Shown here piece by piece: positions 34,616 through 49,319 of a stretch of DNA of 64,000 bases. The DNA lies in contig CACYHU010000058.1 in NCBI GenBank assembly GCA_902774215.1, positions 14,987 through 78,986 of the forward strand, in the 5' to 3' direction. Origin of the DNA: an uncultured Chloroflexota bacterium (lineage in GTDB: Bacteria; Chloroflexota; Anaerolineae; Anaerolineales; Anaerolineaceae). Within the stretch, counting starts at the first letter, position 1, and each line of letters opens with the position of its first letter. The notes below the pieces were generated by a model, which was not told the origin of the DNA, ran no database searches, and was given only the letters and a program-made list of their open reading frames with translations. Both the position numbers and the translations under genes were made by a program.

Positions 34616-34787
34616 GACATACCTTCCTCTCTTTTACAAAATTCAGTTATTCAATGTTTCTATGATAACTGAGTGAGAAAAAACCTGCAAGGATGAAATA
34701 TACAAAATAAGATCGTTTATTTTGCCTTTCGATAAAAAAAAGTGCGGCTTTTCGTTGTATAATAAAAAAATATACTGCGGAGGCTGG

Positions 34788-36683
34788 ATGAAAAAATTAT
34801 TTTTATTTTTAATTTGTTTACTGGTGATATTTGCAGCTCAGGCTGCCTCGGCGCAGGACAATGAACCGGTTCGTAAGCTATATGGCGATTGGGATGTGCT
34901 TTCAAATGATACAGGCTGGACAGTGACGGCATATCGAGGAACAGAGAAAAATGTAGTGATCCCAAATGATTTTGATAATATCCTTGTTACTCAGCTGGCA
35001 GCAGAACTGTTCATGAATGATATTTATCTGGAAAGCATTGTAATTCCGGGAAATGTATCGGTAATTGGAAGAAATGCTTTTAATGGGTGCATCTCTTTGA
35101 AGGAAGTAAGGCTGCCATATAATATCAAAACGGTACCGGAAGGTGCTTTTAAGGGATGCAAATCACTGGAGAGTATTGCGTTCCCTGCTGCATTGACCAG
35201 TATCGGAAAAGAAGCCTTTGCGGATTGTACCGGATTGCGTCAAATTAGTCTGACAAGACGAATCAGTACACTTAATGAGTCTGCTTTTGATGGCTGTACA
35301 AATCTTTCAAGCGTAATTGTACAGCGCAGTCTTTCAACCCTGGGCGCGAATGTTTTCAGGGGGACAGCCTGGCTCGAGAGACAGACGGATGAATTCGTCA
35401 TTCTCGGACGTGGCCTGCTGGTGAAATATAACGGTAACGATGCAAATGTTGAAGTCCCTTATGGAACTATAGCGATAGCCGATGTTTTTGCTGATAACAA
35501 GACAGTAGAATCGGTAAAACTTCCTGATACGGTTCGCCGGATCATGCAGAACGCCTTTAAAGGAGCTGAAAACCTTCATACAGTGAATATTCCGCCATGG
35601 CTGACAACGATTGGCGCAGGTGCGTTTTCAGGCTGTGGACAGATTACTTCTCTGGAACTCCCTGTTACGCTTACTTCCATCGGTGCTAATGCCTTTGAAA
35701 ACTGCGGTAAACTGACTGAATTGGAAATCCCTGACCGGGTTAAATCAATTCCTGCCAATCTGGCTGTGAACAGCGCGTCCCTGACAGATATCCGCATTCC
35801 TGAAGTTGTCACTTCGATCAATAAAAATGCATTTATCGGACTGTCCGGTGTGCATGTTTTTGTATTCCCCGGTTCAGAGGCCGAGAATATTCTAAAGGGG
35901 TATAAATATCCGTATTCTTATATACAATACAAAACCGAAGATTACATTTACTCTAAAAGTCTGACCGGTGTTCAAATTATCCGTTATCTCGGAAATTCAG
36001 CGATCGTTGATATACCTGAAACGATTGACGAACTTCCCGTTACCGGGATAAGTACGGCTGCTTTCCAGAATAACTCATTTGTCAGGATTATAAATCTTCC
36101 GGAAACACTGCAGAATATCGGAGACTGGGCTTTCTCGTATATGGAAAATCTTGAATATGTAAATATGCCGGACAGTTTGCGCAGGATCGGTAATTATGTA
36201 TTTAAAGGATCTCCCATGCTCAGATCTCTATATTTCCCGCCAAAGCTGGTACACGTCGGTGATGATATATTTGATAATCAGTCCGGTTTTGCTGTCTGTG
36301 CTAAAGAAAAAACAAAGGTAGAGATTTATCTGATCGAAAAGGGATATGTTGTTTACAGCGAAGACTATTGCCGGATGGACGATCGGATGTATGATAATAT
36401 CAGCGTTGATTTTGATAATACAAGTAATGTTTGTGATAGCGCGGAAGAGAATCAATTGATTCAAATCCCGGATGGATTAAAAACGGTTACATCAGATTTG
36501 TTCGCAAATGCGGAAAAAGATATTGTGCTTTCTGTTCCCGCAGGCGTGGAGGAAATTGACCCCGGCATATTGGATGGCAGAAATACAACTATTATTTCTG
36601 ACTCCCATACCGCTGCCGAAAAATTTGCGCTTGAGCACGGTTTGAAGTTTCTTGTCCGTGTTGATTTATGGACTGAAAATTAG
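34788..36683 (+). CDS. Secreted BspA-type leucine-rich-repeat protein
   Basis: Signal peptide MKKLFLFLICLLVIFAAQAASAQD. Multiple repeats of about 23 aa of the form ..I.IP..V..IG..AF..C..L..I. Confidence 0.75.
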   Translation: MKKLFLFLICLLVIFAAQAASAQDNEPVRKLYGDWDVLSNDTGWTVTAYRGTEKNVVIPNDFDNILVTQLAAELFMNDIYLESIVIPGNVSVIGRNAFNGCISLKEVRLPYNIKTVPEGAFKGCKSLESIAFPAALTSIGKEAFADCTGLRQISLTRRISTLNESAFDGCTNLSSVIVQRSLSTLGANVFRGTAWLERQTDEFVILGRGLLVKYNGNDANVEVPYGTIAIADVFADNKTVESVKLPDTVRRIMQNAFKGAENLHTVNIPPWLTTIGAGAFSGCGQITSLELPVTLTSIGANAFENCGKLTELEIPDRVKSIPANLAVNSASLTDIRIPEVVTSINKNAFIGLSGVHVFVFPGSEAENILKGYKYPYSYIQYKTEDYIYSKSLTGVQIIRYLGNSAIVDIPETIDELPVTGISTAAFQNNSFVRIINLPETLQNIGDWAFSYMENLEYVNMPDSLRRIGNYVFKGSPMLRSLYFPPKLVHVGDDIFDNQSGFAVCAKEKTKVEIYLIEKGYVVYSEDYCRMDDRMYDNISVDFDNTSNVCDSAEENQLIQIPDGLKTVTSDLFANAEKDIVLSVPAGVEEIDPGILDGRNTTIISDSHTAAEKFALEHGLKFLVRVDLWTEN

Positions 36684-36784: not shown

Positions 36785-36856
36785 TGCGGGGTAGAGCAGA
36801 GGCAGCTCGTCGGGCTCATAACCCGGAGGTCATTGGTTCGAATCCAATCCCCGCTA
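36785..36856 (+). tRNA. Initiator tRNA-fMet (anticodon CAU)
   Basis: TGCGGGGTAGAGCAGAGGCAGCTCGTCGGGCTCATAACCCGGAGGTCATTGGTTCGAATCCAATCCCCGCTA. The anticodon stem has three consecutive G:C pairs (GGG/CCC). Positions 1 and 72 form a U x U mismatch, the initiator hallmark. It closely resembles E. coli tRNA-fMet. Confidence 0.8.
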
Positions 36857-37158
36857 CTTTTTTTTGCCTGTTTTACGAGTGAATGGATCGGAAAACAGGC
36901 TTTTTTTACGGTTTCCACGATTTCGATATTTTATATTCCCTGTGTATGAAGTCCGGGTATTCAATACACATTTTCAAACGACAGGAAGAGGAGATCCGGG
37001 AGGCTTTGGTCAGCTGACGGTGATAAGATGTGAAGCGGGGCGGAATCCCGAATTACGTATTCCGAACTCCGCATTCTGAAGAATGGGTGCCGTGACCCCG
37101 ATTGACGGTTCCGCGTGCCGAACAGCGGCTGTGACGATGAGAGGCCGTCCGCGCACGC

Positions 37159-38823: not shown

Positions 38824-39510
38824 CGTTAGCTCCTCTTCTTTAGGGTGTAGGTGGCAGGTGTTGGGTATCAGGTTTCAGGTGCCAGGTGTTAGTGGAACAG
38901 GAAGCGGCTTCGCCGCATTCTATTTATACTAACTGCTGCCTGCTGGCGACTGTTTGCTAATACTGCCGGCTGGCTGACCACTGATTCTATAACCTGTACC
39001 CAGTGACCTATAACCTGCACATTCTACATCCAACATCCTGCTTTCTGCCGACTGCCGACTGCCTGCTGCATACTGTCTGCTATAACAAACAGTCTACCCC
39101 ATAATTTAAAAAAAGAAAACCGCCAATATTGGCGGTTGACAAATGTTCGATTTTGTGGTAAAGCCCGAGTTTGCCACTTTAAAACATGAAAAAAGGACCG
39201 ATTTGGCCCCTTTTACGACAAAAGAATGAAAAAGTGCGTAAATTTATTTTGAATTTATGTGCCTTCCATTATAGCCCTGCAAGAAAATCTTTATTCCCGT
39301 TTTTCTTGATTTAAAATCCGTCCATCGATAAAGCTTCGGAGGAATATCAATTACAAAATCTTTCAATATCAAAGAAGGAACAGGATCATCTATATCCATA
39401 AACCGATAAAAATCATTAGGACACAGAAAAATGGTTTGCTGATTTTTGTCAAGGACTGTTTCCCTTAGGATATTTTATTTTGCATCATAATCAAACATTT
39501 CATATATATC

Positions 39511-39539
39511 TTGAAATAAGATTACATCTGTAATACAAT
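39511..39539 (+). promoter_or_regulatory. Candidate sigma70 promoter (TTGAAA -17 nt- TACAAT) for the RHH/SPFH/TIR operon. An A/T palindrome lies nearby and is a possible operator.
   Basis: TTGAAA at 39511-39516 and TACAAT at 39534-39539, about 35 nt upstream of the RBS AAGGAG at 39563. Confidence 0.4.
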
Positions 39540-39575
39540 ATTATAAAATAATTGATCAAACTAAGGAGCATTACA

Positions 39576-39764
39576 GTGAGTGACAAAAAGCTGGTCATTC
39601 AAAAACAGAAATACACGGGGGAAACCATTGTGACATCGATGCGGATTCCCAGGGATCTGCTGGCGGATCTTGATAAAGCTGCCAAAGAATCCAACAGGAC
39701 ACGAAACGAAGTTCTGATGATGTGTCTTGAGTTTGCTCTGGAAAATATGGAAATCGAAAAATAA
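39576..39764 (+). CDS. Ribbon-helix-helix (CopG/Arc-like) DNA-binding protein
   Basis: A GTG start lies 7 nt after AAGGAG. ...IVTSMRIPRDLLADLDKAAKESNRTRNEVLMMCLEFAL is the beta-strand plus two-helix RHH pattern. Confidence 0.6.
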   Translation: MSDKKLVIQKQKYTGETIVTSMRIPRDLLADLDKAAKESNRTRNEVLMMCLEFALENMEIEK

Positions 39765-39778
39765 AGGGGACGTTGAAG

Positions 39779-41551
39779 ATGGGTAAGTTTGTGATCGAAT
39801 GTCCGAGATGCGGAAAATTTACTGAGGCCTCAACCGGCTTCTTCGCCAAAAGGAAAATCATGTGTTCCTGTGGGTACACGATTGATGTTAGAACCGATAA
39901 AATGTCATCTCGTGTCTGTCAGCACTGCGGCAATACGGTGATTTTTGACCAGAGCAAAGGCGCTGATGCCCGATGCCCGGTTTGCGGCCAGCCGATCAAC
40001 ACGATGTCCGAGCAGTCAAAGATGGAAGAGATCTCCTGCGAACAATGCGGGGTCCGTTTTACCGTAAACAAAGCAGTTCCTACCTATGTCTGTCCTGTCT
40101 GCGACCATGTCAATGATGTTGCGGAAAGGGTCGCAAAGGAAAAGATCAGAAAAGACGGGCTCGCCAGCATCATCAAATATGAGGGCAGCGGAGATACACT
40201 GGTCTGGAAACACCCGATCGAGGATTTCAACTACGGTTCACAGCTCATCGTCCATGAAAGTCAGGAGGCTGTCTTTTACCGGGACGGTCAGGCACTGGAT
40301 CTTTTCGGTCCGGGACGCTATACGCTGGAAACACAGCAGCTGCCCATGCTTGAAAAGATCTACAAGCTGCCGACTGACACTGAAGGAACCTTCCATTCCG
40401 AAGTTTACTATATCAACCTTGCTACGGTCATGGGGATCAAATGGGGCACGGATTCCAAGGTCAGGATGTTTGATCCAAGCTCCGGAATGCATGTGGAACT
40501 CGGTGCCTGCGGGGAATTCAATATCCGTGTGATCAACTCCCGAAAGCTGCTTGCCAAACTCGTCGGGACGGGCGGCGTATTGAAACAGGAGCAGCTCATC
40601 GGGATGGGAGACGGCAAGGGATATTTTCGCGGAATGATCATGACCCAGGTCAAGAGTTATCTGGCTCAGGCGATCAAAGCTGCGAATATCAGCGTTCTCG
40701 AAATCGACGAGCGTCTGATGGATCTTTCCGCTGAACTGCGTAATCGGCTGAATAGTTTCCTTGCGGATTATGGCTTGGAAATGCCTGAATTCTTCGTCAC
40801 AAGAGTCATGACTCCTGATGATGATCCGAATTTCCGCCGAATGAAAGAACAGTATGCTCAGCAGTTTCTTCTCGTCCGTCAGGAACAGATACGCAAGCAG
40901 GAAGCGGAAGCTGCTGCCGCACGCAAGGAAGTTGAGGCTGCGACAGCTGCGCGCATGAAAATAATTGGTGCTCAGGGAGATGCGGAAGCCCTTCGGGCGA
41001 AGGCACAGGCGGAAGCTGACGCCTACCGTATGCAGGCGGAAGCTGAAGCGCTCGAAATGAAGATGAAAGGTTATACATACCAGCAAGAAACAGCACGCCA
41101 GGTTGGTATGGAAGCAATGAAGAATGGTATCTCCGGCGGAGCAGGCGCGGGTGCGCTGGGTGACCTCGCCGGGTTGGGAATCAGTCTTGGTGCGATGGGC
41201 AGCGTGATCGGCATGACAAAAGATGCCTTGCAGCCTGCGGCTGAAACCGCGAAAGGTCTTGGTCAAATGGTCGGTGCCTCTATCACAGATAACGCCGGTT
41301 GGGACTGCGAATGCGGACAGAAAGGAAATACAGGAAACTTCTGTATGAACTGCGGCGCAAGAAAACCTCAGCAGAAGGCTGCTTCAGACACCTGGAATTG
41401 TGAATGCGGTGCGAAGGGCAACACCGGAAAATTCTGTCCGAATTGTGGCGCAAAACGTCCAGAAATCAATACCGGATGGGATTGCAGCTGCGGTCAGAAG
41501 AACAACACAGGAAAGTTCTGCGCTAATTGTGGAAAGAAACGGGAGGAATAA
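39779..41551 (+). CDS. Zinc-ribbon / SPFH (band-7) / zinc-ribbon fusion protein
   Basis: The N-terminus has three CxxC...CxxC ribbons (CPRCG..CSCG; CQHCG..CPVCG; CEQCG..CPVCD). An SPFH core follows (…YINLATVMGIKWGTDSKVRMFDP…), then an EA-rich coiled coil and a Gly-rich segment. The C-terminus carries three repeats of WDCxCGxKxNTGxFCxNCGxKR. Confidence 0.7.
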   Translation: MGKFVIECPRCGKFTEASTGFFAKRKIMCSCGYTIDVRTDKMSSRVCQHCGNTVIFDQSKGADARCPVCGQPINTMSEQSKMEEISCEQCGVRFTVNKAVPTYVCPVCDHVNDVAERVAKEKIRKDGLASIIKYEGSGDTLVWKHPIEDFNYGSQLIVHESQEAVFYRDGQALDLFGPGRYTLETQQLPMLEKIYKLPTDTEGTFHSEVYYINLATVMGIKWGTDSKVRMFDPSSGMHVELGACGEFNIRVINSRKLLAKLVGTGGVLKQEQLIGMGDGKGYFRGMIMTQVKSYLAQAIKAANISVLEIDERLMDLSAELRNRLNSFLADYGLEMPEFFVTRVMTPDDDPNFRRMKEQYAQQFLLVRQEQIRKQEAEAAAARKEVEAATAARMKIIGAQGDAEALRAKAQAEADAYRMQAEAEALEMKMKGYTYQQETARQVGMEAMKNGISGGAGAGALGDLAGLGISLGAMGSVIGMTKDALQPAAETAKGLGQMVGASITDNAGWDCECGQKGNTGNFCMNCGARKPQQKAASDTWNCECGAKGNTGKFCPNCGAKRPEINTGWDCSCGQKNNTGKFCANCGKKREE

Positions 41552-41554
41552 GTC

Positions 41555-42241
41555 ATGAAAAGCCAATTACGGATCGGTATCATTTTATTGATAGTATTGG
41601 CTGTATTTACGGTGATTGCCTTTGCTGTACCGTTTGAACATACAGCTGTTTTCTGGATTTCCTATGCCATGGGAGTTTTCGCTCTGCTGGTATTGGGTGT
41701 TGTCCTTTTGTCCATGTTTGGAAAAGAAACAACGGTCAGAAGCAAATTCTACAGATTCCCGATCACCCGAATCGCCTGGTGTTATGGAGCGACACAATTG
41801 ATTCTGAGCCTGATCTTTATGATCTTCTCAGCGAAGATACCGGTTTGGATTCCTGTGATTGTTTATGTTGTTTTATTCGCTGTTGCGGCGATTGGTTTAA
41901 TTAGCGCGGATGCCATGCGCGATGAGATTGTCCGTCAGGATGCAAAACTGAAAACTGATATTTCCTGCATGACAACGCTGCGCTCTATCGTTTATCCATT
42001 GGCGGATCAATGTCCTGATCTAAACGCAAAAAAGGCACTGCAAAAACTGGCTGAGGATTTTCGTTATAGTGATCCTGTCAGCAGCGAAGCTCTGAAACCG
42101 GTCGAAAATGAACTTGAGGACCTTGTTTCCGAGCTCCAGAATGCTGTCAGCAGCGGAAACATTACTCAGGTCGCTGCGCTTTGCAGTAAGATCAGTACAG
42201 TTCTGACAGAACGGAATCGACTGTGTAAATTGAACAAATAA
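41555..42241 (+). CDS. 4-TM membrane protein with a cytoplasmic helical C-terminal domain
   Basis: Its start lies 3 nt after the upstream stop. Four hydrophobic helices in the first 120 aa. No known motif. Confidence 0.55.
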   Translation: MKSQLRIGIILLIVLAVFTVIAFAVPFEHTAVFWISYAMGVFALLVLGVVLLSMFGKETTVRSKFYRFPITRIAWCYGATQLILSLIFMIFSAKIPVWIPVIVYVVLFAVAAIGLISADAMRDEIVRQDAKLKTDISCMTTLRSIVYPLADQCPDLNAKKALQKLAEDFRYSDPVSSEALKPVENELEDLVSELQNAVSSGNITQVAALCSKISTVLTERNRLCKLNK

Positions 42242-42255
42242 CTCCGGGAGGAATT

Positions 42256-44127
42256 ATGGCGATATTTCGATGCAAAATGTGTGGCGGAGATTTGGAAATT
42301 CAGGATGGGGCGACTTCCTGTGTATGTGAGTTCTGCGGGACACGGCAGACGCTGCCGACCAATCAGGATGAAAACCTGCAGGGACTGTTTAATCGGGCGA
42401 ATGTGCTGCGGATAAAGTCCGAATTTGACAAGGCCGCGGATATTTATGAAAAGATCCTGCAGGCGGACCAGACCGAAGCGGAAGCCTATTGGGGACTGAT
42501 CCTCTGCAAATACGGCATCGAATATGTCGAAGATCCCGCGACTTACAAACGGATACCGACCTGCCACCGGGCATCCTATGACGCTGTGACGACTGATGAA
42601 GACTACAAAAACGCACTGAAATATGCCGATGCCGTCCAGCGGGAGATCTATGAAACCGAAGCGGCGAAGATCGAAGAGATTCAGAGAGGTATCCTTGCAA
42701 TTGCACAAAAGGAATCTCCATATGATGTCTTCATCTGCTACAAAGAAACTGATGACAGCGGAAACCGAACACAGGACAGCGTGATCGCCAATGACATTTA
42801 CTATCAGCTGAAGAATGAGGGTTTCAAGGTCTTTTATGCCGCGATCTCCCTGGAAGACAAACTCGGCTCGGAATATGAACCGGTAATCTTTTCAGCGCTG
42901 AATACCGCAAAGGTTATGCTGGTGCTGGGTACAAAGCCGGAATATTTCAATGCCGTGTGGGTAAAAAACGAGTGGTCCCGCTTTCTGAAGATCATGAAAA
43001 AGGATCGAACCCGCTTGATGATCCCCTGTTACAAAGATATGGATCCATATGAACTTCCGGAAGAATTCGCTCATCTGCAGGCTCAAAATATGGGGAAGAT
43101 CGGTTTTATTAATGACTTGGTTCGCGGAATAAAGAAGGTTATCGGAAACGACCAGCCCCAGCAGGCAGCTGCACCCATGCCTGTTACTGCGGCAACTCCG
43201 GTTCATACAAGCAATGTGAACGCACTTTTGAAACGTGGAAACATGGCTCTTGAAGATGGCGAATGGGAAAAGGCCGATGATTTCTTCGAACAGGTTCTGA
43301 ACCAGGATGCAGAATGTGCGGAGGCTTATTGGGGAAAATATCTCGCTGCAAATCATCAACATAATGCAGAAGCTTTATACTCTTCATTGACTAACCAATA
43401 TAAAGAAGTTGCCTTTGTAAAAAAAGAGGCTTTTCCGCCTAATACCGCATATATTGAAAATGCTGTAAAGAATTTTGGTAAGGTTGGTATTTATTCCGAA
43501 GAGAAAATAAGAAGATATTATCAAAATTTTGACAGATATTTCGATTCGGAAATGGAAATAAGAAAAAAGCAGAAGGCAGAATTGATTCAGGCTACAGAGA
43601 CGGATAAATTATTTATTCGTGCGCAGCAATACGCCAAAGGAAATACAAAAGAAGCTATTGATCAATTTCTTGATTCGATCAATCGGGCCATGGATTCCAA
43701 AATACAGGAGGCTACGAATAGCGATGCTCAAAAGATTGCTGATAAGGTTGCAGCTTACCAGCAATATCTATCAGAAACAGATTCAAGATTATATAACGAA
43801 ATTAAGAAACTTTGGGATGAGAATGAACCTGAATATCAAAGGCTCCTTCAAGAATTTAATAACGCAAATACCGAAATTAAATTTATATCCTTACAAACAG
43901 ATTTTCAAAGACTTGGGGAATATAAAGATTCCAAAGTGCTTGCTCAGAGATGTTGGTCAGAATACTTAAAACTTCAGAAACAATTCTTGCAGGAGCAAGA
44001 ACAGCAAATGAAAAATAAAAACAAAGAAGAAGCACAAAAGAAAGAAAAAATATTCAAATTATCAATTATTTTAATTGTTATTGTACTTTTAGGAATTATA
44101 GTAGGGCTGATTATCACGTCCAAATAA
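42256..44127 (+). CDS. TIR-domain protein 1 (Zn-ribbon, TPR-like region, TIR, divergent helical C-terminal region, C-terminal TM anchor)
   Basis: N-terminal zinc ribbon MAIFRCKMCGGDL...CEFCG. TIR signatures YDVFICYKETDD ... AVWVKNEWSRF (S..W...E, the catalytic-Glu motif). C-terminal TM helix LSIILIVIVLLGIIVGLII. RBS GGGAGG precedes the start. Confidence 0.75.
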   Translation: MAIFRCKMCGGDLEIQDGATSCVCEFCGTRQTLPTNQDENLQGLFNRANVLRIKSEFDKAADIYEKILQADQTEAEAYWGLILCKYGIEYVEDPATYKRIPTCHRASYDAVTTDEDYKNALKYADAVQREIYETEAAKIEEIQRGILAIAQKESPYDVFICYKETDDSGNRTQDSVIANDIYYQLKNEGFKVFYAAISLEDKLGSEYEPVIFSALNTAKVMLVLGTKPEYFNAVWVKNEWSRFLKIMKKDRTRLMIPCYKDMDPYELPEEFAHLQAQNMGKIGFINDLVRGIKKVIGNDQPQQAAAPMPVTAATPVHTSNVNALLKRGNMALEDGEWEKADDFFEQVLNQDAECAEAYWGKYLAANHQHNAEALYSSLTNQYKEVAFVKKEAFPPNTAYIENAVKNFGKVGIYSEEKIRRYYQNFDRYFDSEMEIRKKQKAELIQATETDKLFIRAQQYAKGNTKEAIDQFLDSINRAMDSKIQEATNSDAQKIADKVAAYQQYLSETDSRLYNEIKKLWDENEPEYQRLLQEFNNANTEIKFISLQTDFQRLGEYKDSKVLAQRCWSEYLKLQKQFLQEQEQQMKNKNKEEAQKKEKIFKLSIILIVIVLLGIIVGLIITSK

Positions 44128-44244
44128 AAAATATTCTTTGTATGATGAGTAGCGCATCTTACTCCGAAGCTTTAGTATAAGTGATGTTGGAAACAGATAA
44201 TAATGAAATGTTGAAGATTATTTCAGGATAGTTAAGAGGATATT

Positions 44245-46065
44245 ATGGCGATGTATCGATGCAAGATGTGCGGCGGAGACCTGAAAATTCAGGACGGGGC
44301 GACCTCCTGTGTATGTGAATTCTGTGGGACGCAGCAGACGCTTCCGACCAATCAGAATGAGAATCTCCAGGGACTGTTTAATCGGGCGAATGTGTTGCGG
44401 ATAAAGTCCGAATTTGACAAGGCCGCGGATATTTATGAGAAGATCCTGCAGGAGGACCAGACCGAAGCGGAAGCTTACTGGGGACTGATCCTCTGCAAAT
44501 ACGGCATCGAATATGTTGAAGATCCAGCCATCTATAAGCGCATCCCGACCTGCCACCGGGCGTCCTATGAGGCGGTGACCACCGATGAAGACTACAAAAA
44601 CGCGCTGAAATATGCCGACGCGGTCCAGCGGGAGATCTATGAGACCGATGCGGCGAAGATCGAAGAGATCCAGAAGGGCATCATTGCCATTTCTCAAAAG
44701 GAATCACCCTATGATGTCTTCATCTGCTACAAAGAGACCGACAACAGCGGGAACCGAACCCAGGACAGCGTGATCGCCAATGATATTTACTACCAGCTGA
44801 AGAATGAAGGATTCAAGGTATTTTACGCAGCGATATCGCTTGAAGATAAGCTTGGCTTGGAATATGAACCGGTGATCTTTTCTGCGCTGAATACCGCGAA
44901 GGTGATGCTGGTCCTGGGAACAAAACCGGAATATTTCAATGCGGTCTGGGTGAAAAACGAATGGTCCCGCTTCCTGAAGATCATGAAAAAGGACCGTACC
45001 CGCTTGATGATCCCCTGTTACAAAGACATGGATCTCTATGAGCTTCCCGAAGAATTTGCTCATCTGCAGGCACAGAACATGGAGAAAATCGGCTTCATCA
45101 ACGATCTTGTCCGCGGCATAAAGAAAGTTATCAGAAAGGATCAGCCCCAGCCGGCAGTAAAGCCTATGCCTGTTGCCGCAGCAGCTCCGGTTTATACAAG
45201 CAACGTAAACGCGCTCTTGAAACGCGGAAACATGGCTCTGGAAGATGGCGAATGGGAAAAAGCCGATGATTTCTTCGAACAGGTTTTGAACCAAGATGCA
45301 GAATGTGCGCAAGCTTATTTTGGAAAATTTTTAGCTGCTAATAAACAACCTGGTCGCAATGTAATGATTGATCCTTTGATTGATAATTTTTGTGGAGATA
45401 TTGAGAAAGAAACCGTGGAAGCTTTTCCTCTTGATGAAGATCATATTCAGAAAATTATTCATAAATTTTCTATTCCCGAGTACCTTCCCGAAAAGACAAT
45501 AATTGATTATTATCATTTTTCCAGTCATTACCAATCAGAAGTAAAGTATCTTAAAGAACAGAGATTTCAATTATTGACTTATCTTGCTGCAGATAAATTC
45601 CTGATTCGAGCAAAAAAATATGCGAATGAAAAGGAAAAAGAACTTTTTAAAAACTGGATGAATTCTGTAGAAAATGCCATGGATCATCGTATCATTCAAG
45701 CGCTGGAAGAAGATCAGCAAAAAGAAGAAGAATTGAAAAAAAGTTATGTTTTTTTTCTTAAAGAAAAAGATTATCAGATTCAAAAACTTTGGCAGCAGGC
45801 ATCCATAAAGCGTGAACAAGACTATCAAAAAATAATCAGAGATATGAGGTCAGCAGGCTCTAAAGGAAGTTCATTAAAGAGTGATTTGTATAGAGCAAAA
45901 ATGAATTTCAGTACTCCCGGCATGAAAGACTATAAGGAAGCTGCAAAATATGCTGAATTATGCAAAATACAAATAAGCCGTTTTGAATCTTATGAACGAA
46001 GAAAAATCGAAGAATCCAAAATAGAAAATCAGTTATCAGAAGAAATACGGCATCGATTCCACTGA
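44245..46065 (+). CDS. TIR-domain protein 2 (paralog of TIR-1, no C-terminal TM)
   Basis: Same Zn-ribbon/TPR/TIR module as TIR-1, about 90% identical at nucleotide level for the first 1.1 kb. The C-terminal third is unrelated and AT-rich. Confidence 0.75.
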   Translation: MAMYRCKMCGGDLKIQDGATSCVCEFCGTQQTLPTNQNENLQGLFNRANVLRIKSEFDKAADIYEKILQEDQTEAEAYWGLILCKYGIEYVEDPAIYKRIPTCHRASYEAVTTDEDYKNALKYADAVQREIYETDAAKIEEIQKGIIAISQKESPYDVFICYKETDNSGNRTQDSVIANDIYYQLKNEGFKVFYAAISLEDKLGLEYEPVIFSALNTAKVMLVLGTKPEYFNAVWVKNEWSRFLKIMKKDRTRLMIPCYKDMDLYELPEEFAHLQAQNMEKIGFINDLVRGIKKVIRKDQPQPAVKPMPVAAAAPVYTSNVNALLKRGNMALEDGEWEKADDFFEQVLNQDAECAQAYFGKFLAANKQPGRNVMIDPLIDNFCGDIEKETVEAFPLDEDHIQKIIHKFSIPEYLPEKTIIDYYHFSSHYQSEVKYLKEQRFQLLTYLAADKFLIRAKKYANEKEKELFKNWMNSVENAMDHRIIQALEEDQQKEEELKKSYVFFLKEKDYQIQKLWQQASIKREQDYQKIIRDMRSAGSKGSSLKSDLYRAKMNFSTPGMKDYKEAAKYAELCKIQISRFESYERRKIEESKIENQLSEEIRHRFH

Positions 46066-46098
46066 CATAAAATGTTTAGGAAAAAACAAAAATCATTA

Positions 46099-46236
46099 AT
46101 AGATAGCTTCCATAAAACCATTCCATTCAGAAAAATCACATTGTCTATATTGGTTATTTCCAATAGCTACAACAGTGCCATCTGATTTCAACCCAACTTT
46201 ATAAATCTTCCGGTAGGAACAATTATCTAAGCGAGG
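46099..46236 (-). pseudogene. Orphan fragment of an RCC1-like repeat protein
   Basis: Minus-strand frame PRLDNCSYRKIYKVGLKSDGTVVAIGNNQYRQCDFSEWNGFMEAIY* (46 codons between stops, no start) matches the RCC1/ATS1-type repeat consensus (...GLKSDGTVVAVG.N.YGQCDVS.W...). Confidence 0.45.
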
Positions 46237-46361
46237 TTATTGGTAAAGTTTGGAAATTAATTAAGAAATTTTTACAAACAGGAGCAAAGATTTCTTAATA
46301 ATTAACAATATCAGCTTTATTTACAAACCTGAATATGGAAATATCATAAGACTGCGTAAAA

Positions 46362-47297
46362 TCAGCCGGATGCCCGATTTGCCATTTTCTTACGAGTGTC
46401 GGTGATGGCGGCCTGATAAAAGGCTTTGTAGCCGGGTTTGCCGTCGGGAGTGGTTTTTTCGGTATCGGAGAAACCCATGTCGAGGACTTCCACGTCCATG
46501 AGTTTGAGCAATTCGGTCTTTTCCCGCTGTTTTTCGGAGCGGAGCTCGTAGAAATATACTCTGCCGTGTTCGGCGCGTTCCCGCTGTTTTCGGTTCAGCA
46601 GCCACCAGAGGTCGACTTCGGACAGGCCGAAACCGAAGCCGAGAACATAGACATCGCCCAGGATGAAGGAATCCATCCAGCTGTTCAGTTCGATCAGTTT
46701 TCCCTCTTTCTGATTGCGGGCATAACGATCTTTATTCTTTTCCGATTCCTCGATGATCTTATAGAGCAGCTTCCCGTACCAGTAGTGGCCGAGGATCATG
46801 CTGTCGGTTTTGCGGATCTCACCGTGAACATGCCAGATACGGTTTTCCGTATTCCCGCACTTTACCTGATTATAGGTGTGCAGCAGGTAATTCCTTTCCG
46901 GGTTTTTTGAAGTGTACCGCATGAGTTTTGCGACCTGTTGGTCTGTGAGTTCATATTTCCCGAGAGCCGCTTCTTCCAGTTCATAGCTGTAATTCGTCGT
47001 AAGGATATCATCAAATCCCATGGTCAGAAGGTCCCGCAGGACTTCCATCTGCCGGTCGTTCCGGATCTTCCCCCTGAAATCCTCCTTTGCTGATTTCAGA
47101 GATGTCCGGATCTGGTTGTCCGATGCAAGGATCGCCTGCAGCGGCATCGGCATTTCGGATCTCGACCAGTCAAAGTCATTCCGTTTCGCGATCTTCCCGA
47201 TCAGATCCGCCCATGAGATACCGCTGTACGCCAGATTGAGCCCGTTGCCGAGAAACAAAATTTGTGGAATTGTAAAATTATTACATATATTTACCAT
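46362..47297 (-). CDS. Standalone SIR2-family protein (SIR2_2 / ThsA-type sirtuin-like NADase domain, no SLOG or other sensor domain)
   Basis: LFLGNGLNLA (GxG), ILTTNYSYELE (TTNYD-like, catalytic Asn), IWHVHGE (HxHG, catalytic His) and VLGFGFGLSEVDLWW. The ATG at 47297 lies 6 nt after the TIR-3 stop and has no SD of its own, suggesting translational coupling. Confidence 0.7.
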   Translation of the reverse strand: MVNICNNFTIPQILFLGNGLNLAYSGISWADLIGKIAKRNDFDWSRSEMPMPLQAILASDNQIRTSLKSAKEDFRGKIRNDRQMEVLRDLLTMGFDDILTTNYSYELEEAALGKYELTDQQVAKLMRYTSKNPERNYLLHTYNQVKCGNTENRIWHVHGEIRKTDSMILGHYWYGKLLYKIIEESEKNKDRYARNQKEGKLIELNSWMDSFILGDVYVLGFGFGLSEVDLWWLLNRKQRERAEHGRVYFYELRSEKQREKTELLKLMDVEVLDMGFSDTEKTTPDGKPGYKAFYQAAITDTRKKMANRASG

Positions 47298-47303
47298 ATA
47301 TTT

Positions 47304-49136
47304 TTATTTTTTAGAATTGATAGCAATGAGTAAAATCAAACTCATTATCAGAATTACAACCAAAAGGATAATAGTTTCTCTTGTCTTTTTTGTTTTTTCT
47401 TGTTGTTCAAGACGTCTTTGTTCTTCTTGATATATTTCTTTTTTCCTTTTGTGTAATTCATCTATTCTTTTGCTAATATCTTTATATCCCGTCCCGATTT
47501 TTTCGAATAAAAAAATAGCTGTATCACAGGCACTAATAGTTTCTGCTTTATCTGCTTGTGAACATGCTAATTGAAAATAATTTTCTCGTTTTTGAAATGT
47601 TGCTTGATAAAGCTGATTTGCTTTTTCATATGAATCAAAAAATTCTTGAGAATACTCCTCATTTATCCTTTTGAAATTTTCATCATCCTTGCTTCGTTCA
47701 TTTTCCAAGTGTAATTGCCAATTCGTTAGTATTCTTTTTTTTGCTTTGATTATGAAATCATTATTATTAGCGAATCGAATGGCACGATTAAAATATTTAT
47801 TTCTATTAAGTTTTTCAGTTTCGTTTTCTATTATTTGTGATATAGAAGCCGTTTCGCTTGAAAATGATTTCTCGTTTTGATTGAAAAGTTTTCGGATTGT
47901 TTTGCTATCTAAATAATTTTCTATCGTAAATTTCTCGGCAACAAGATCAACATCTTTCATGTTACGGGGAACAGTAATCTGTTGAATTTTACTGTTTTTT
48001 ATGAGGTTTTGCGATTTCCCTATCAGTTCCTCTATATTTTTGCATTGATAAAATGCTAATAATTTTCCAATGTAAGCATCTGAAGATTCAGGATCGATAT
48101 CCAATGCCTTGTCAAAATAAATATCTGCGGTAGAAAAGTCCCCGTCCTGTAATTCAATGTTTCCGCGCTTGAGAAACGAATTTATATTTGTTTGTTCTGA
48201 AATTTCTTGAACAAATTTTCCTTCTTTTTCTTCATGAGGTTTCAATTCAAGCACTTTGGTGATTCCGCGGATCAGGTCCTGGATAAAGCCGATGCGGCTC
48301 ATGTCGTAACTCTGCAGGATGGAAAGCTGTTCCGGCATGTCGTAGGGATCCATGTCGCGGTAGCAGGGGATCAGCAGCCGGCTGCGGTCATTTTTCATGA
48401 GGGCGAGGTAGCGGCTCCATTCGTTCTTCACCCAGACCGCGTTCATATATTCGGGACGAGTCCCGATGACGATCATAACTTTGGAAGAATGCAGGGCGGT
48501 AAAGATATAGGGCTCATACTGCTGCCCGGGTTTGTCTTCGAGGGTGATGCGGGAGAAAAAGACACGGTATCCCTGATCAGTCAGGCGGTAATAGATGTCC
48601 TGCGCCAGGGTGCTGTCGAGGGTACGCTGTCCGCGGTCATCGCTTTCCTTGTAGCAGATGAAAACATCGAAGGGAGCTTCTTTGTTGACGGTTTCGATGA
48701 TGTTCCGCTGGACTTCGGCGATAACTCTGCCGTCGTGCTCATACTGTTCCCGTGCGATCGGATCAGCGTTAGCGACAGCTGCCTGATAGTCTACGTCCTC
48801 CAGAAAGTTCGTGAAAGAAGCCCGGTGGCAGGTCGGGATATATTTTCCGCTGGCGGGATCCTTGACATATTCGATGCCGTACCGCGAAAGCGCCGCGCAC
48901 CAGTGTGCTTCGGCATCGGTATCATCTTCGGCGATGATGCGTTCATAGACGCTGAGCGCCTTGTCGAATTCGCTGATCCTGCGGAAATGGTCCCCGCGGT
49001 TGAAGGCGGCCGCCCGCTGTTCATCATTGATCTTAGGCAGTGTCTGCCTGGTGCCGCAATACTCGCAAACCGCGACGGTCGTCCCGTCAGCGATATTCAA
49101 ATCCCCGCCGCAAATTTTACACCGAATAATCGTCAT
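47304..49136 (-). CDS. TIR-domain protein 3 (paralog of TIR-1 and TIR-2; Zn-ribbon, TPR-like region, TIR, divergent C-terminal region, C-terminal TM anchor)
   Basis: MTIIRCKICGGDL...CEYCG. TIR motifs FDVFICYKESDD ... AVWVKNEWSRY. C-terminal TM helix IILLVVILIMSLILLIAI. RBS GGAGAAGAA. Confidence 0.75.
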   Translation of the reverse strand: MTIIRCKICGGDLNIADGTTVAVCEYCGTRQTLPKINDEQRAAAFNRGDHFRRISEFDKALSVYERIIAEDDTDAEAHWCAALSRYGIEYVKDPASGKYIPTCHRASFTNFLEDVDYQAAVANADPIAREQYEHDGRVIAEVQRNIIETVNKEAPFDVFICYKESDDRGQRTLDSTLAQDIYYRLTDQGYRVFFSRITLEDKPGQQYEPYIFTALHSSKVMIVIGTRPEYMNAVWVKNEWSRYLALMKNDRSRLLIPCYRDMDPYDMPEQLSILQSYDMSRIGFIQDLIRGITKVLELKPHEEKEGKFVQEISEQTNINSFLKRGNIELQDGDFSTADIYFDKALDIDPESSDAYIGKLLAFYQCKNIEELIGKSQNLIKNSKIQQITVPRNMKDVDLVAEKFTIENYLDSKTIRKLFNQNEKSFSSETASISQIIENETEKLNRNKYFNRAIRFANNNDFIIKAKKRILTNWQLHLENERSKDDENFKRINEEYSQEFFDSYEKANQLYQATFQKRENYFQLACSQADKAETISACDTAIFLFEKIGTGYKDISKRIDELHKRKKEIYQEEQRRLEQQEKTKKTRETIILLVVILIMSLILLIAINSKK

Positions 49137-49319
49137 TTCTTCTCCGCTAACTCTTGATAAAACACAAATTCTTTATAATTACTATTGTAACATATTTGTA
49201 TTTTTCAACTGAAATATTGTAAATCACAATTTGAAATATCCATTTGGATTTGAACTCTTAGTGAGAAAAAAAATCGCCGAAAAGACGGCGAATTTGCTTT
49301 CTGAAGGGTTATGTGTGTA

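Follow-up and report, generated by a model that had tools for sequence, protein, structure and literature searches.

A TIR/SPFH operon with an adjoining SIR2 gene in an uncultured Anaerolineaceae bacterium: possible instance of a widespread membrane-associated conflict module

Introduction

A block of seven open reading frames (ORFs) is described here from a 64,000-nt stretch of DNA of an uncultured Anaerolineaceae bacterium (Chloroflexota; assembly GCA_902774215.1, contig CACYHU010000058.1), referred to as the window. It encodes a small ribbon-helix-helix (RHH)-like protein, an SPFH protein, a protein with four transmembrane segments (4TM), three large TIR proteins (TIR1 to TIR3) and a standalone SIR2 protein. 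Several described systems share parts of this inventory. In Thoeris, a TIR protein (ThsB) is paired with the SIR2 protein ThsA, which carries a SLOG (type I) or Macro (type II) domain. KomC of the Kongming system (KomABC) is a short standalone SIR2 NADase (~265–277 aa) that receives its activating signal via a partner protein, and AbiH of Lactococcus is a single-gene, sirtuin-like abortive-infection protein (PMC13064643); both are precedents for a short SIR2 without a sensor domain of its own.

On the SPFH side, the closest parallel is the PspA-YdjGHI (SamGHI) group. YdjI of B. subtilis is a soluble SPFH protein that needs the membrane proteins YdjG and YdjH, and YdjG has N-terminal Zn ribbons and a C-terminal transmembrane (TM) segment (PMC8581546, PMC11237479). 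Conflict sensors diversified by diversity-generating retroelements (DGRs) are known from multicellular bacteria; these are built on STAND or MoxR NTPases, and most of the targets are predicted to be cytoplasmic (PMC10907252). In topology only, animal Toll-like receptors are also relevant, as single-pass proteins in which the membrane separates a variable domain for ligand binding from a cytoplasmic TIR domain.

Compared with these, the block is here read, at somewhat less than even confidence, as one instance of a widespread, previously undescribed, membrane-associated and NAD-centred conflict module, with an extra effector gene. The reading draws on what the computations show: which domains the proteins contain, that their catalytic residues are conserved, that the operon recurs, that DGRs target relatives, and which fold the SIR2 protein has. 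Its defining partnership, SPFH plus 4TM plus membrane TIR, would make it a new variant within the NAD-centred TIR/SIR2 conflict systems.

A Conserved Operon Core and Its Inserts

Operon conservation was assessed in 80 retained loci sampled through their TIR genes and searched with the window proteins (loci are cited below by number). SPFH homologues (32–73% identity) lie beside the TIR genes, on the same strand, in 58 of the 80, and 4TM homologues (23–53% identity) directly follow the SPFH gene, again on the same strand, in 53. The loci without them are mostly short contigs: among the 21 that are fully assessable, with at least 5 kb upstream and at least 6 kb downstream, 20 have both. Clustering of ORFs, with the window slice included, found TIR in 80 loci, SPFH and 4TM in 50 each, a small RHH-like ORF in 11 and SIR2 in five, and no further recurrent gene family around the TIR genes; the remaining genes vary between loci, as do the flanks. 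When sampling was reversed and started from SPFH homologues, three of them on long contigs, the order small ORF (64–76 aa), SPFH, 4TM, TIR was seen in all three, ORFs of that size being found at the equivalent position in L093, L095 and L097. Sampling from the TIR and SPFH sides thus identifies the core as RHH–SPFH–4TM–TIR(n), with one to six TIR paralogs per locus, and not as TIR plus SIR2. A preliminary description of this DNA, made from the sequence alone, had pointed to the TIR-plus-SIR2 logic of Thoeris, which is not upheld as the organising principle: SIR2 is present in 5/80 TIR loci, SPFH with 4TM in 20/21 assessable ones. The co-occurrence of Zn-ribbon TIR, SIR2 and SPFH genes that it proposed to look for across genomes is found for SPFH and 4TM with TIR, while SIR2 is optional.

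The family is large. With the first 300 TIR residues as query, HMMER matched 3,962 clusters (50% identity) at E ≤1e-30 among 1.84 billion cluster representatives, a search for TIR3 homologues gave at least 8,000 matches, and a GTDB scan (one genome per species) confirmed at least 558 TIR loci, nearly all in gut or rumen Clostridia metagenome-assembled genomes (MAGs). There are some 7,988 SPFH homologues, of which the best 120 share 67–96% identity. TIR (~48% identity) and 4TM (~45%) evolve faster than SPFH (~70%).

Equivalent slots inside SPFH–4TM–TIR operons are occupied by a range of accessory genes: DUF2971 in four loci (L039, L066, L075, L085), two HEPN-like families in three loci each (L029, L038, L042; L029, L071, L076), a 141-aa TIR in two (L057, L082) and bAvd in three (L037, L066, L077). 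These inserts look like interchangeable effectors. One further accessory family, of 228–257 aa (L015, L038, L080), has no Pfam match.

Layout of the Locus

All seven ORFs of the preliminary description are in the ORF list of the window at the positions it gave (Table 1); Pfam confirms their TIR, SIR2 and SPFH domains, and the short gaps are as described. Two public metagenome contigs carry identical gene calls for the block. With likely starts, the plus-strand intergenic gaps are 14 nt (RHH–SPFH), 3 nt (SPFH–4TM), 14 nt (4TM–TIR1) and 117 nt (TIR1–TIR2); TIR3 and SIR2 form a pair on the opposite strand, convergent with the main operon. Because its gene order is seen again in dozens of unrelated contigs, the block is not a chance assemblage. 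Promoter-like sites were found upstream of the plus-strand operon and of TIR3, both as consensus matches only, the promoter scan as a whole showing no enrichment over shuffles.

Table 1. Positions of the seven genes, the promoter-like sites and the upstream features within the window
Feature	Coordinates	Strand	Remarks
BspA-type LRR_5 surface protein	34722..36683	+	E 5e-83; flanks the block
tRNA-Met gene	36785..36857		~2.7 kb upstream of the operon
ORF, 554 aa	37159..38823	-	No Pfam match; Pro/Glu/Ser-rich near-repeats (…TTPAEESQPEIS…)
Non-coding stretch, ~700 nt	38824..39500		CTGCC/GGTG-rich short repeats
Promoter-like TTGAAA-17-TACAAT	39511..39539	+	10/12 consensus matches; upstream of plus-strand operon; start as in the preliminary description
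Small RHH/CopG-like ORF, 62 aa	39576..39764	+	GTG 39576, AAGGAG 7 nt upstream of it; listed ORF 39552..39764 from TTG 39552
SPFH/Band_7_1 protein, 590 aa	39779..41551	+	Band_7_1 E 5e-38
4TM membrane protein, 228 aa	41555..42241	+	Four hydrophobic segments
TIR1, 623 aa	42256..44127	+	Zn ribbon, TPR, TIR, TPR, long helices, C-terminal TM tail anchor
TIR2, 606 aa	44245..46065	+	Same N-terminal module as TIR1, different helical C-terminus, no TM segment
Standalone SIR2, 311 aa	46362..47297	-	AbiH-like/KomC-like, predicted NADase, no sensor domain
TIR3, 610 aa	47304..49136	-	Zn ribbon, TPR, TIR, TPR, helices, TM tail anchor
Promoter-like TTGAAA-16-AATAGT	49181..49208	-	9/12 consensus matches; weak; upstream of TIR3

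The small ORF at the operon head is a probable transcriptional regulator. Its match to Pfam RHH_1 is below threshold (E 0.0033; 17.8 bits against a cut-off of 20.5). The ORF, which public contigs also call at 62 aa, has homologues at the operon head in 10 other loci, the evidence for its conservation coming from ORF clustering and called genes, not from tblastn.

A PADLOC scan of all seven proteins gave only weak matches to SIR2 cores, and neither it nor an NCBIfam scan gave any match above cut-offs, so the block cannot be assigned to any catalogued defence system, in keeping with the preliminary description, which had not recognised the combination either. A literature search of incomplete coverage turned up no paper describing a TIR, SPFH and Zn-ribbon/RCC1 membrane module, which is absence of evidence only.

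Upstream of the block, the tRNA-Met gene is a possible integration landmark, and no integrase was seen nearby.

The SIR2 Protein as an Optional Insert

The SIR2 protein passes the Pfam thresholds of both AbiH (PF14253; 36.0 bits against a cut-off of 30.9, E 1e-8, residues 41–239) and SIR2_2 (25.6 against 24.5 bits), its only Pfam matches. The motifs reported earlier (GxG, TTNY and HxHG) are intact, and GNG, TTN102 and WHxH158GE are invariant in 27 homologues, the positions being G17-N18-G19, T100, N102 and W155-H156-x-H158-G159-E160. An AlphaFold2 (AF2) model (predicted local distance difference test, pLDDT, 85.7; predicted template modelling score, pTM, 0.87) has a single SIR2-type domain. 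A sequence search against PDB chains gave no match; in Foldseek the model has 66 matches at E ≤1e-3, and its top PDB neighbours are ThsA (E 4e-8), KomC and DSR2, all anti-phage SIR2 NADases. The GxG loop, the catalytic Asn and His and the SIR2 fold that mark defence NADases are thus all found in the window protein. Neither Pfam nor the AF2 model revealed a SLOG or Macro sensor, and the earlier claim that SLOG is lacking stands.

Several observations would fit a two-step scheme of the Thoeris kind, in which the TIR protein makes a cyclic ADP-ribose-type signal on infection that activates the adjacent SIR2 NADase. As in Thoeris, a TIR protein with a conserved catalytic-type Glu adjoins a SIR2 protein whose predicted fold is closest to ThsA. 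The SIR2 ATG lies 6 nt after the TIR3 stop (TAA aaatat ATG) without a Shine-Dalgarno sequence, as the preliminary description had read it; a family TIR gene is directly upstream of SIR2, on the same strand, in 29 SIR2-linked loci; and KomC shows that a standalone SIR2 can be signalled through a partner. The scheme is nevertheless quite improbable. The 311-aa protein has no SLOG, Macro or other ligand-binding domain, unlike ThsA, and the PADLOC ThsA match covers only the SIR2 core (residues 14–122, E 7e-4), the ThsB/ThsA models matching nothing beyond it. The three window TIR proteins have no PADLOC match at E ≤0.01 and reach only 23 bits with NCBIfam ThcB4 (cut-off 220), and the family TIRs are membrane proteins of ~600–1,000+ aa with a Zn ribbon and TPR. 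Of the loci sampled through TIR, only ~6% have SIR2, so that TIR function cannot depend on it, and SIR2 homologues also occur alone; the obligate partners here, SPFH and 4TM, are both absent from Thoeris. A TIR subclade specific to SIR2 was considered and rejected, since the median identity to TIR3 is 56% for SIR2-adjacent TIRs and 60% for others. The TIR domain of one family member also gave no product in vitro (see below).

It could instead be that the SIR2 gene is a self-sufficient, AbiH-type abortive-infection gene with a tendency to enter this fast-evolving locus, without mechanistic link to TIR or SPFH. Like the single-gene AbiH, whose Pfam gathering score it passes, the window protein is standalone, ~300 aa long and without a sensor, and distant homologues occur alone: the one in L007 is part of a GmrSD/SIR2 defence island, that in L008 adjoins a MoxR-type cluster, and that in L010 has housekeeping genes around it. 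However, the window SIR2 and about half of its sampled close homologues, unlike AbiH, are embedded in a TIR/SPFH operon. In a metagenome scan sampled through SIR2, the gene is inside such an operon in 27 of 57 assessable loci; the 80 loci sampled include near-duplicate contigs, and the 27 represent roughly a dozen distinct arrangements. The linked fraction follows identity to the window protein, with 6/6 at ≥50%, 8/13 at 44–49%, 13/27 at 40–43% and 0/11 below 40%. The usual order is TIR, SIR2, SPFH, 4TM, TIR, with an estimated SIR2–SPFH gap of mostly 5–20 nt. So regular a position, on the same strand and straight after a TIR gene, across about a dozen arrangements at 42–55% identity, is tighter linkage than ordinary defence-island clustering and makes simple juxtaposition improbable. 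SIR2 is not a random neighbour of the SPFH/TIR operon. From these distributions, it is read as a recurrent but optional insert, one of several plug-in effectors.

The resemblance to KomC concerns size, the lack of a sensor and structure, KomC being among the top neighbours in the structural search (target-normalised TM-score 0.61). In sequence the two are only ~15% identical, and there are no homologues of KomA or KomB.

MoxR-type clusters were seen near two of the sampled genes. In L008 (9975–12887), DUF2201 and bpMoxR/AAA_5 genes adjoin the standalone SIR2 homologue, which has LRR_5 proteins around it and a DUF4132 protein nearby; in L095 (1–9558), AAA_5, DUF5682, VWA_CoxE and DUF4132 genes are beside the SPFH operon. 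These may represent a second conflict system that tends to co-locate with the module or with SIR2 homologues.

The TIR Proteins of the Window

The three TIR paralogs have the architecture first attributed to them. Each has CxxC pairs at residues 6 and 24 (CxxC...CxxC, 6–27; the C4 Zn ribbon), TPR matches at ~40–85 and ~316–375, and a Pfam TIR_2 match over residues ~158–280 (E 1.7e-10, 2.4e-9 and 2.8e-13 for TIR1, TIR2 and TIR3, respectively), followed by a divergent, helical C-terminus. Also as described, two of the three have a TM tail anchor (TIR1, 602–620; TIR3, 588–606), none being predicted in TIR2. The membrane association proposed for the block is upheld. TIR1 and TIR2 are 69% identical overall and near-identical across the first ~370 aa; their DNA is 90% identical over at least the first 300 nt (42253–42552 vs 44242–44541), and the C-termini then diverge completely, which indicates a probable recent duplication or gene conversion with the C-terminal part swapped. 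TIR3 is more distant (41% identity to TIR1), and its sequence is identical on four public contigs.

The catalytic motif, reported earlier as conserved, is intact. In an alignment of 30 family members W235, N238, E239, W240 and the Zn-ribbon residues C24 and C27 are invariant, as are the motifs PTCxRxS (101–107) and DVFxCYKE (157–164). Aligned with TIR domains that are proven NADases (AbTir, a B. thetaiotaomicron TIR, and those of Leptonema and Roseburia), E239 coincides with the catalytic Glu (E208 in AbTir) and W235 with the conserved Trp (W204 in AbTir). The window proteins therefore show the W-x-x-x-E motif of TIR-domain NADases, with the TIR_2 fold match and the Glu in position. They have kept a catalytic-type Glu and are putative NADases. 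The assignment of the fold is based on Pfam and on the alignment to assayed domains, not on Foldseek. There are also weak matches of the TIR region to TLR15/TLR2 and plant L6 TIR sequences.

Conservation across the family is also very high in a stretch outside the TIR domain, YGIEYV…PTCHRAS (TIR residues 86–107; 42511–42576 in TIR1), in which G87, I88, E89, Y90, V91, P101, T102, C103, R105 and S107 are invariant. It is a predicted β-hairpin, with the first TPR pair before it and the TIR domain after it, and matches no known domain.

Variable C-Terminal Domains and DGR Targeting in the Family

The preliminary description, confined to the window, overlooked the typical C-terminus of the family, a TM helix followed by a variable domain. 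The module shared by family members comprises residues 1–297, and, with a single exception among the 150 best clusters listed, the match starts at the N-terminus or only a few residues from it, the proteins being 400–2,329 aa long. A TM segment is predicted in 106 of the 120 best homologues, nearly always single and at residue ~520–690, and members of 800–1,050 aa have a 300–400 aa extension after it. This extension carries RCC1_2/WD40_RLD in 61/120 and DUF6273 in 25/120 of the best homologues (one DUF6273 example was confirmed). Since a Lys/Arg-rich stretch lies N-terminal to the helix, as do Zn ribbon and TIR domain, the N-terminal module would be cytoplasmic and the variable domain (RCC1 propeller or DUF6273, lectin-like) extracellular in most relatives. 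By this comparison the window copies are a truncated form, with an apparent loss of the helix in TIR2.

In two relatives (L037, 10001–14535; L066, 10001–14477), a bAvd-like ORF, a template repeat (TR) and a reverse transcriptase (RT)-like ORF come after the TIR gene. Pfam assigns the RT-like ORF of L037 to RVT_1 (E 3e-18), and that of L066 clusters with it as a homologue. The final ~125 nt of the TIR gene, which lie within the DUF6273-like domain, form the variable repeat (VR), 84% (L037) or 87% (L066) identical to the TR. In the L037 alignment each mismatch within the repeat is on a TR adenine. DGR targets are present in the TIR family, in these two loci, and not at the window locus, where no DGR-type repeat was found within 39400–49300. 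Domains of the DUF6273 kind are also hypermutated in the receptor-binding proteins of gut phages (PMC10743442), which supports, without proving, a ligand-binding role for the C-terminal domain. The two DGR-bearing relatives resemble the sensors of multicellular bacteria (PMC10907252) in having a C-type-lectin-like variable region that a DGR hypermutates and that is joined, by fusion or linkage, to TIR-type effector domains; they differ in that there is no NTPase, the variable domain is beyond a TM helix, there is an SPFH partner, and DGRs occur only in these relatives.

A more far-reaching view, which must be considered doubtful, is that the family is a bacterial counterpart of Toll-like receptors. 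The variable ectodomain, sometimes hypermutated by a DGR, would sense phage particles or other foreign surfaces from the outside in, as adsorption takes place or even earlier, and the single TM helix would relay the signal to the cytoplasmic TIR domain; a 4TM-anchored cage of Zn-ribbon SPFH protein would gate TIR clustering and NAD+ cleavage, with ectodomain-less paralogs such as the three in the window as adaptors or amplifiers and SIR2, HEPN and DUF2971 proteins as plug-in executioners. The likeness is one of topology. The orientation is opposite, with TIR N-terminal and the ectodomain C-terminal here; the ectodomains (RCC1, DUF6273) are unrelated; the catalytic Glu is retained; the window copies have no ectodomain; and no homology beyond TIR is implied.

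SPFH and 4TM Proteins, and an Envelope-Stress Alternative

The SPFH protein has CxxC at residues 8, 47, 66, 87 and 105 and three C-terminal CxC...CxxC repeats; from these positions it is read as having three N-terminal Zn ribbons and three C-terminal Zn-ribbon repeats. It has no TM segment and is predicted to be soluble and cytoplasmic. The 4TM protein has hydrophobic segments at residues 7–25, 38–56, 73–91 and 99–117, followed by a tail that is conserved in 48 homologues (R170-Y-S-D-P174, E184, R220-N, C224, K228). It had no Pfam or NCBIfam match at E ≤0.01 and no PADLOC match. Presumably it anchors the SPFH protein; its tail would be on the cytoplasmic side, given that the TM segments are even in number and the partner is soluble.

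This arrangement raises the possibility, already mentioned in the preliminary description, of a PspA/YdjGHI-like module for envelope stress or membrane integrity that is not primarily antiviral. The SPFH protein would be recruited to damaged or specialised membrane, the Zn-ribbon/TM TIR proteins would be its YdjG-like partners, and the TIR domain would serve as a scaffold or in physiological signalling and not in killing. The resemblance is a real one, if partial: here too a highly conserved, soluble SPFH protein of Band_7_1 (YdjI) type with C-terminal Zn ribbons is encoded with membrane proteins, and YdjG has, like the window and family TIRs, N-terminal Zn ribbons and a C-terminal TM segment. 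Other parts of the comparison fail. PspA was found neither among the window ORFs nor as a conserved family in the 80 loci, which have no other conserved partner either, and Pfam and NCBIfam searches found no TPM domain of the YdjH type in the 4TM protein; strict YdjGHI homology was rejected on these two counts. The Zn-ribbon/TM partner here has TPR and TIR domains and mostly a large ectodomain, with effector inserts and, in relatives, DGRs. A scaffold would have no need of a strictly invariant catalytic-type Glu, and paralog expansion, DGR hypermutation and recurrent SIR2, HEPN, DUF2971 and small-TIR inserts are typical traits of conflict systems, not of housekeeping under stress. A function of this kind is considered unlikely, though it deserves more weight than either explanation of the SIR2 gene above, and it returns below with the genomic context.

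Genomic Context and the Case for a Conflict Module

The locus may have reached its present host by horizontal transfer. At ≥90% identity, the SPFH and 4TM proteins of the window cluster with proteins annotated from MAGs of Anaerolineaceae and Flexilinea (Chloroflexota), while the TIR family is otherwise almost wholly one of Clostridia; GC content drops to 0.39–0.43 across the TIR and SIR2 genes (42001–48000), compared with ~0.45–0.50 in the flanks; and a MAG labelled Flexilinea (L003) has the same arrangement, TIR3–SIR2 included, between different flanks. Together these suggest horizontal acquisition, by cross-phylum transfer in the rumen, or else mis-binning. Carriage by phages was considered as well and rejected, there being just two viral-contig matches.

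The interpretation as a conflict module appeals to signatures that such systems would be expected to leave: one to six TIR paralogs, rapid evolution of TIR and 4TM, effector-type inserts, variable flanks, DGRs and probable horizontal transfer. A number of observations weigh against it. The flanks in the window are housekeeping-like (the LRR_5 surface protein, tRNA-Met, an Fe-S protein, an aminotransferase), and in L097–L099 the operon is among housekeeping genes (dnaE, pfk, trkAH, argF, birA, coaX, greA), with the same SPFH seen in many samples. Such a context, taken with SPFH identity of ~70% between families, would suit a stable function of the cell better than a defence island of patchy occurrence, and confidence in the conflict module is restrained because its setting is not a classical defence island. 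The TIR family is nearly absent from viral contigs, with matches in 2 of 2.9 million, both with SPFH adjacent. The housekeeping context and the near-absence from viral contigs would also suit an envelope-stress function. In the window itself, TIR1 and TIR3 are tail-anchored short forms and TIR2 is without a helix, so that no copy has an ectodomain, and no PADLOC or NCBIfam defence model matches the block. The AF2 model of TIR3 is of low confidence in the TIR core (pLDDT 44–57, residues 230–280); for that reason Foldseek of the full-length model against the PDB, which matched only TPR proteins, does not address the TIR fold.

There is also contrary enzymatic evidence. In vitro, two constructs of the isolated TIR domain of a family member from Eubacterium eligens (EUBELI_RS07950 / C4Z355) formed no NADase product (Weagley et al., PMC9092222, Table S2), and similar metagenomic sequences are labelled 'Inactive' in the same gut-microbiome NADase survey (Tables S1, S2), which makes no mention of membrane architecture or of an SPFH/4TM context. 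Given this negative, which favours an envelope-stress function too, the TIR domain may be a scaffold, or may depend on the full assembly. The result is real but not decisive, because many TIR enzymes are active only when oligomerised. The interest of the module rests entirely on comparative genomics, and this one published negative stands against its simplest reading.

Possible Mechanism and Significance

For a conflict module, the mechanism that we infer extends to membrane topology, NADase activity, trigger, the role of SPFH and an anti-phage phenotype. The 4TM protein would bring its SPFH partner to the inner side of the membrane, as YdjG and YdjH anchor YdjI, and the SPFH protein would form an oligomeric platform that keeps the TIR proteins apart or inactive, perhaps through the Zn ribbons that both share. 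The TIR module (Zn-ribbon–TPR–TIR–TPR–coiled-coil) would be cytoplasmic and held at the membrane by its single C-terminal helix. A trigger, either a ligand of the ectodomain or a membrane disturbance such as phage adsorption or injection, would let the TIR domains cluster and cleave NAD+ via Glu239, leading to NAD+ depletion or a nucleotide signal. Optional neighbours would add killing (in the window the AbiH/KomC-like SIR2, at other loci HEPN, DUF2971 or a second TIR of small size), and the outcome would be growth arrest or abortive infection. Without an ectodomain, the window TIR paralogs would have to take their cue from the SPFH/4TM platform, or else serve as adaptors or amplifiers.

Characterised TIR/SIR2 defences nearly all sense infection inside the cell. 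If immune, the module would be a membrane-resident, possibly surface-sensing TIR system in the dominant gut and rumen Clostridia, with a receptor-like logic for bacterial immunity resembling the topology of Toll-like receptors. It would also give poorly understood SPFH proteins of the YdjI type a concrete job, the gating of an NAD-cleaving effector, and the published 'inactive' TIR domain may need its SPFH/4TM context. The members targeted by DGRs offer a natural handle on what the C-terminal domain binds. The family is large, with about 3,960 TIR clusters at 50% identity and thousands of SPFH partners in abundant taxa of the human and ruminant gut, and it is absent from defence catalogues; censuses of defence in gut Firmicutes may therefore miss a major component.

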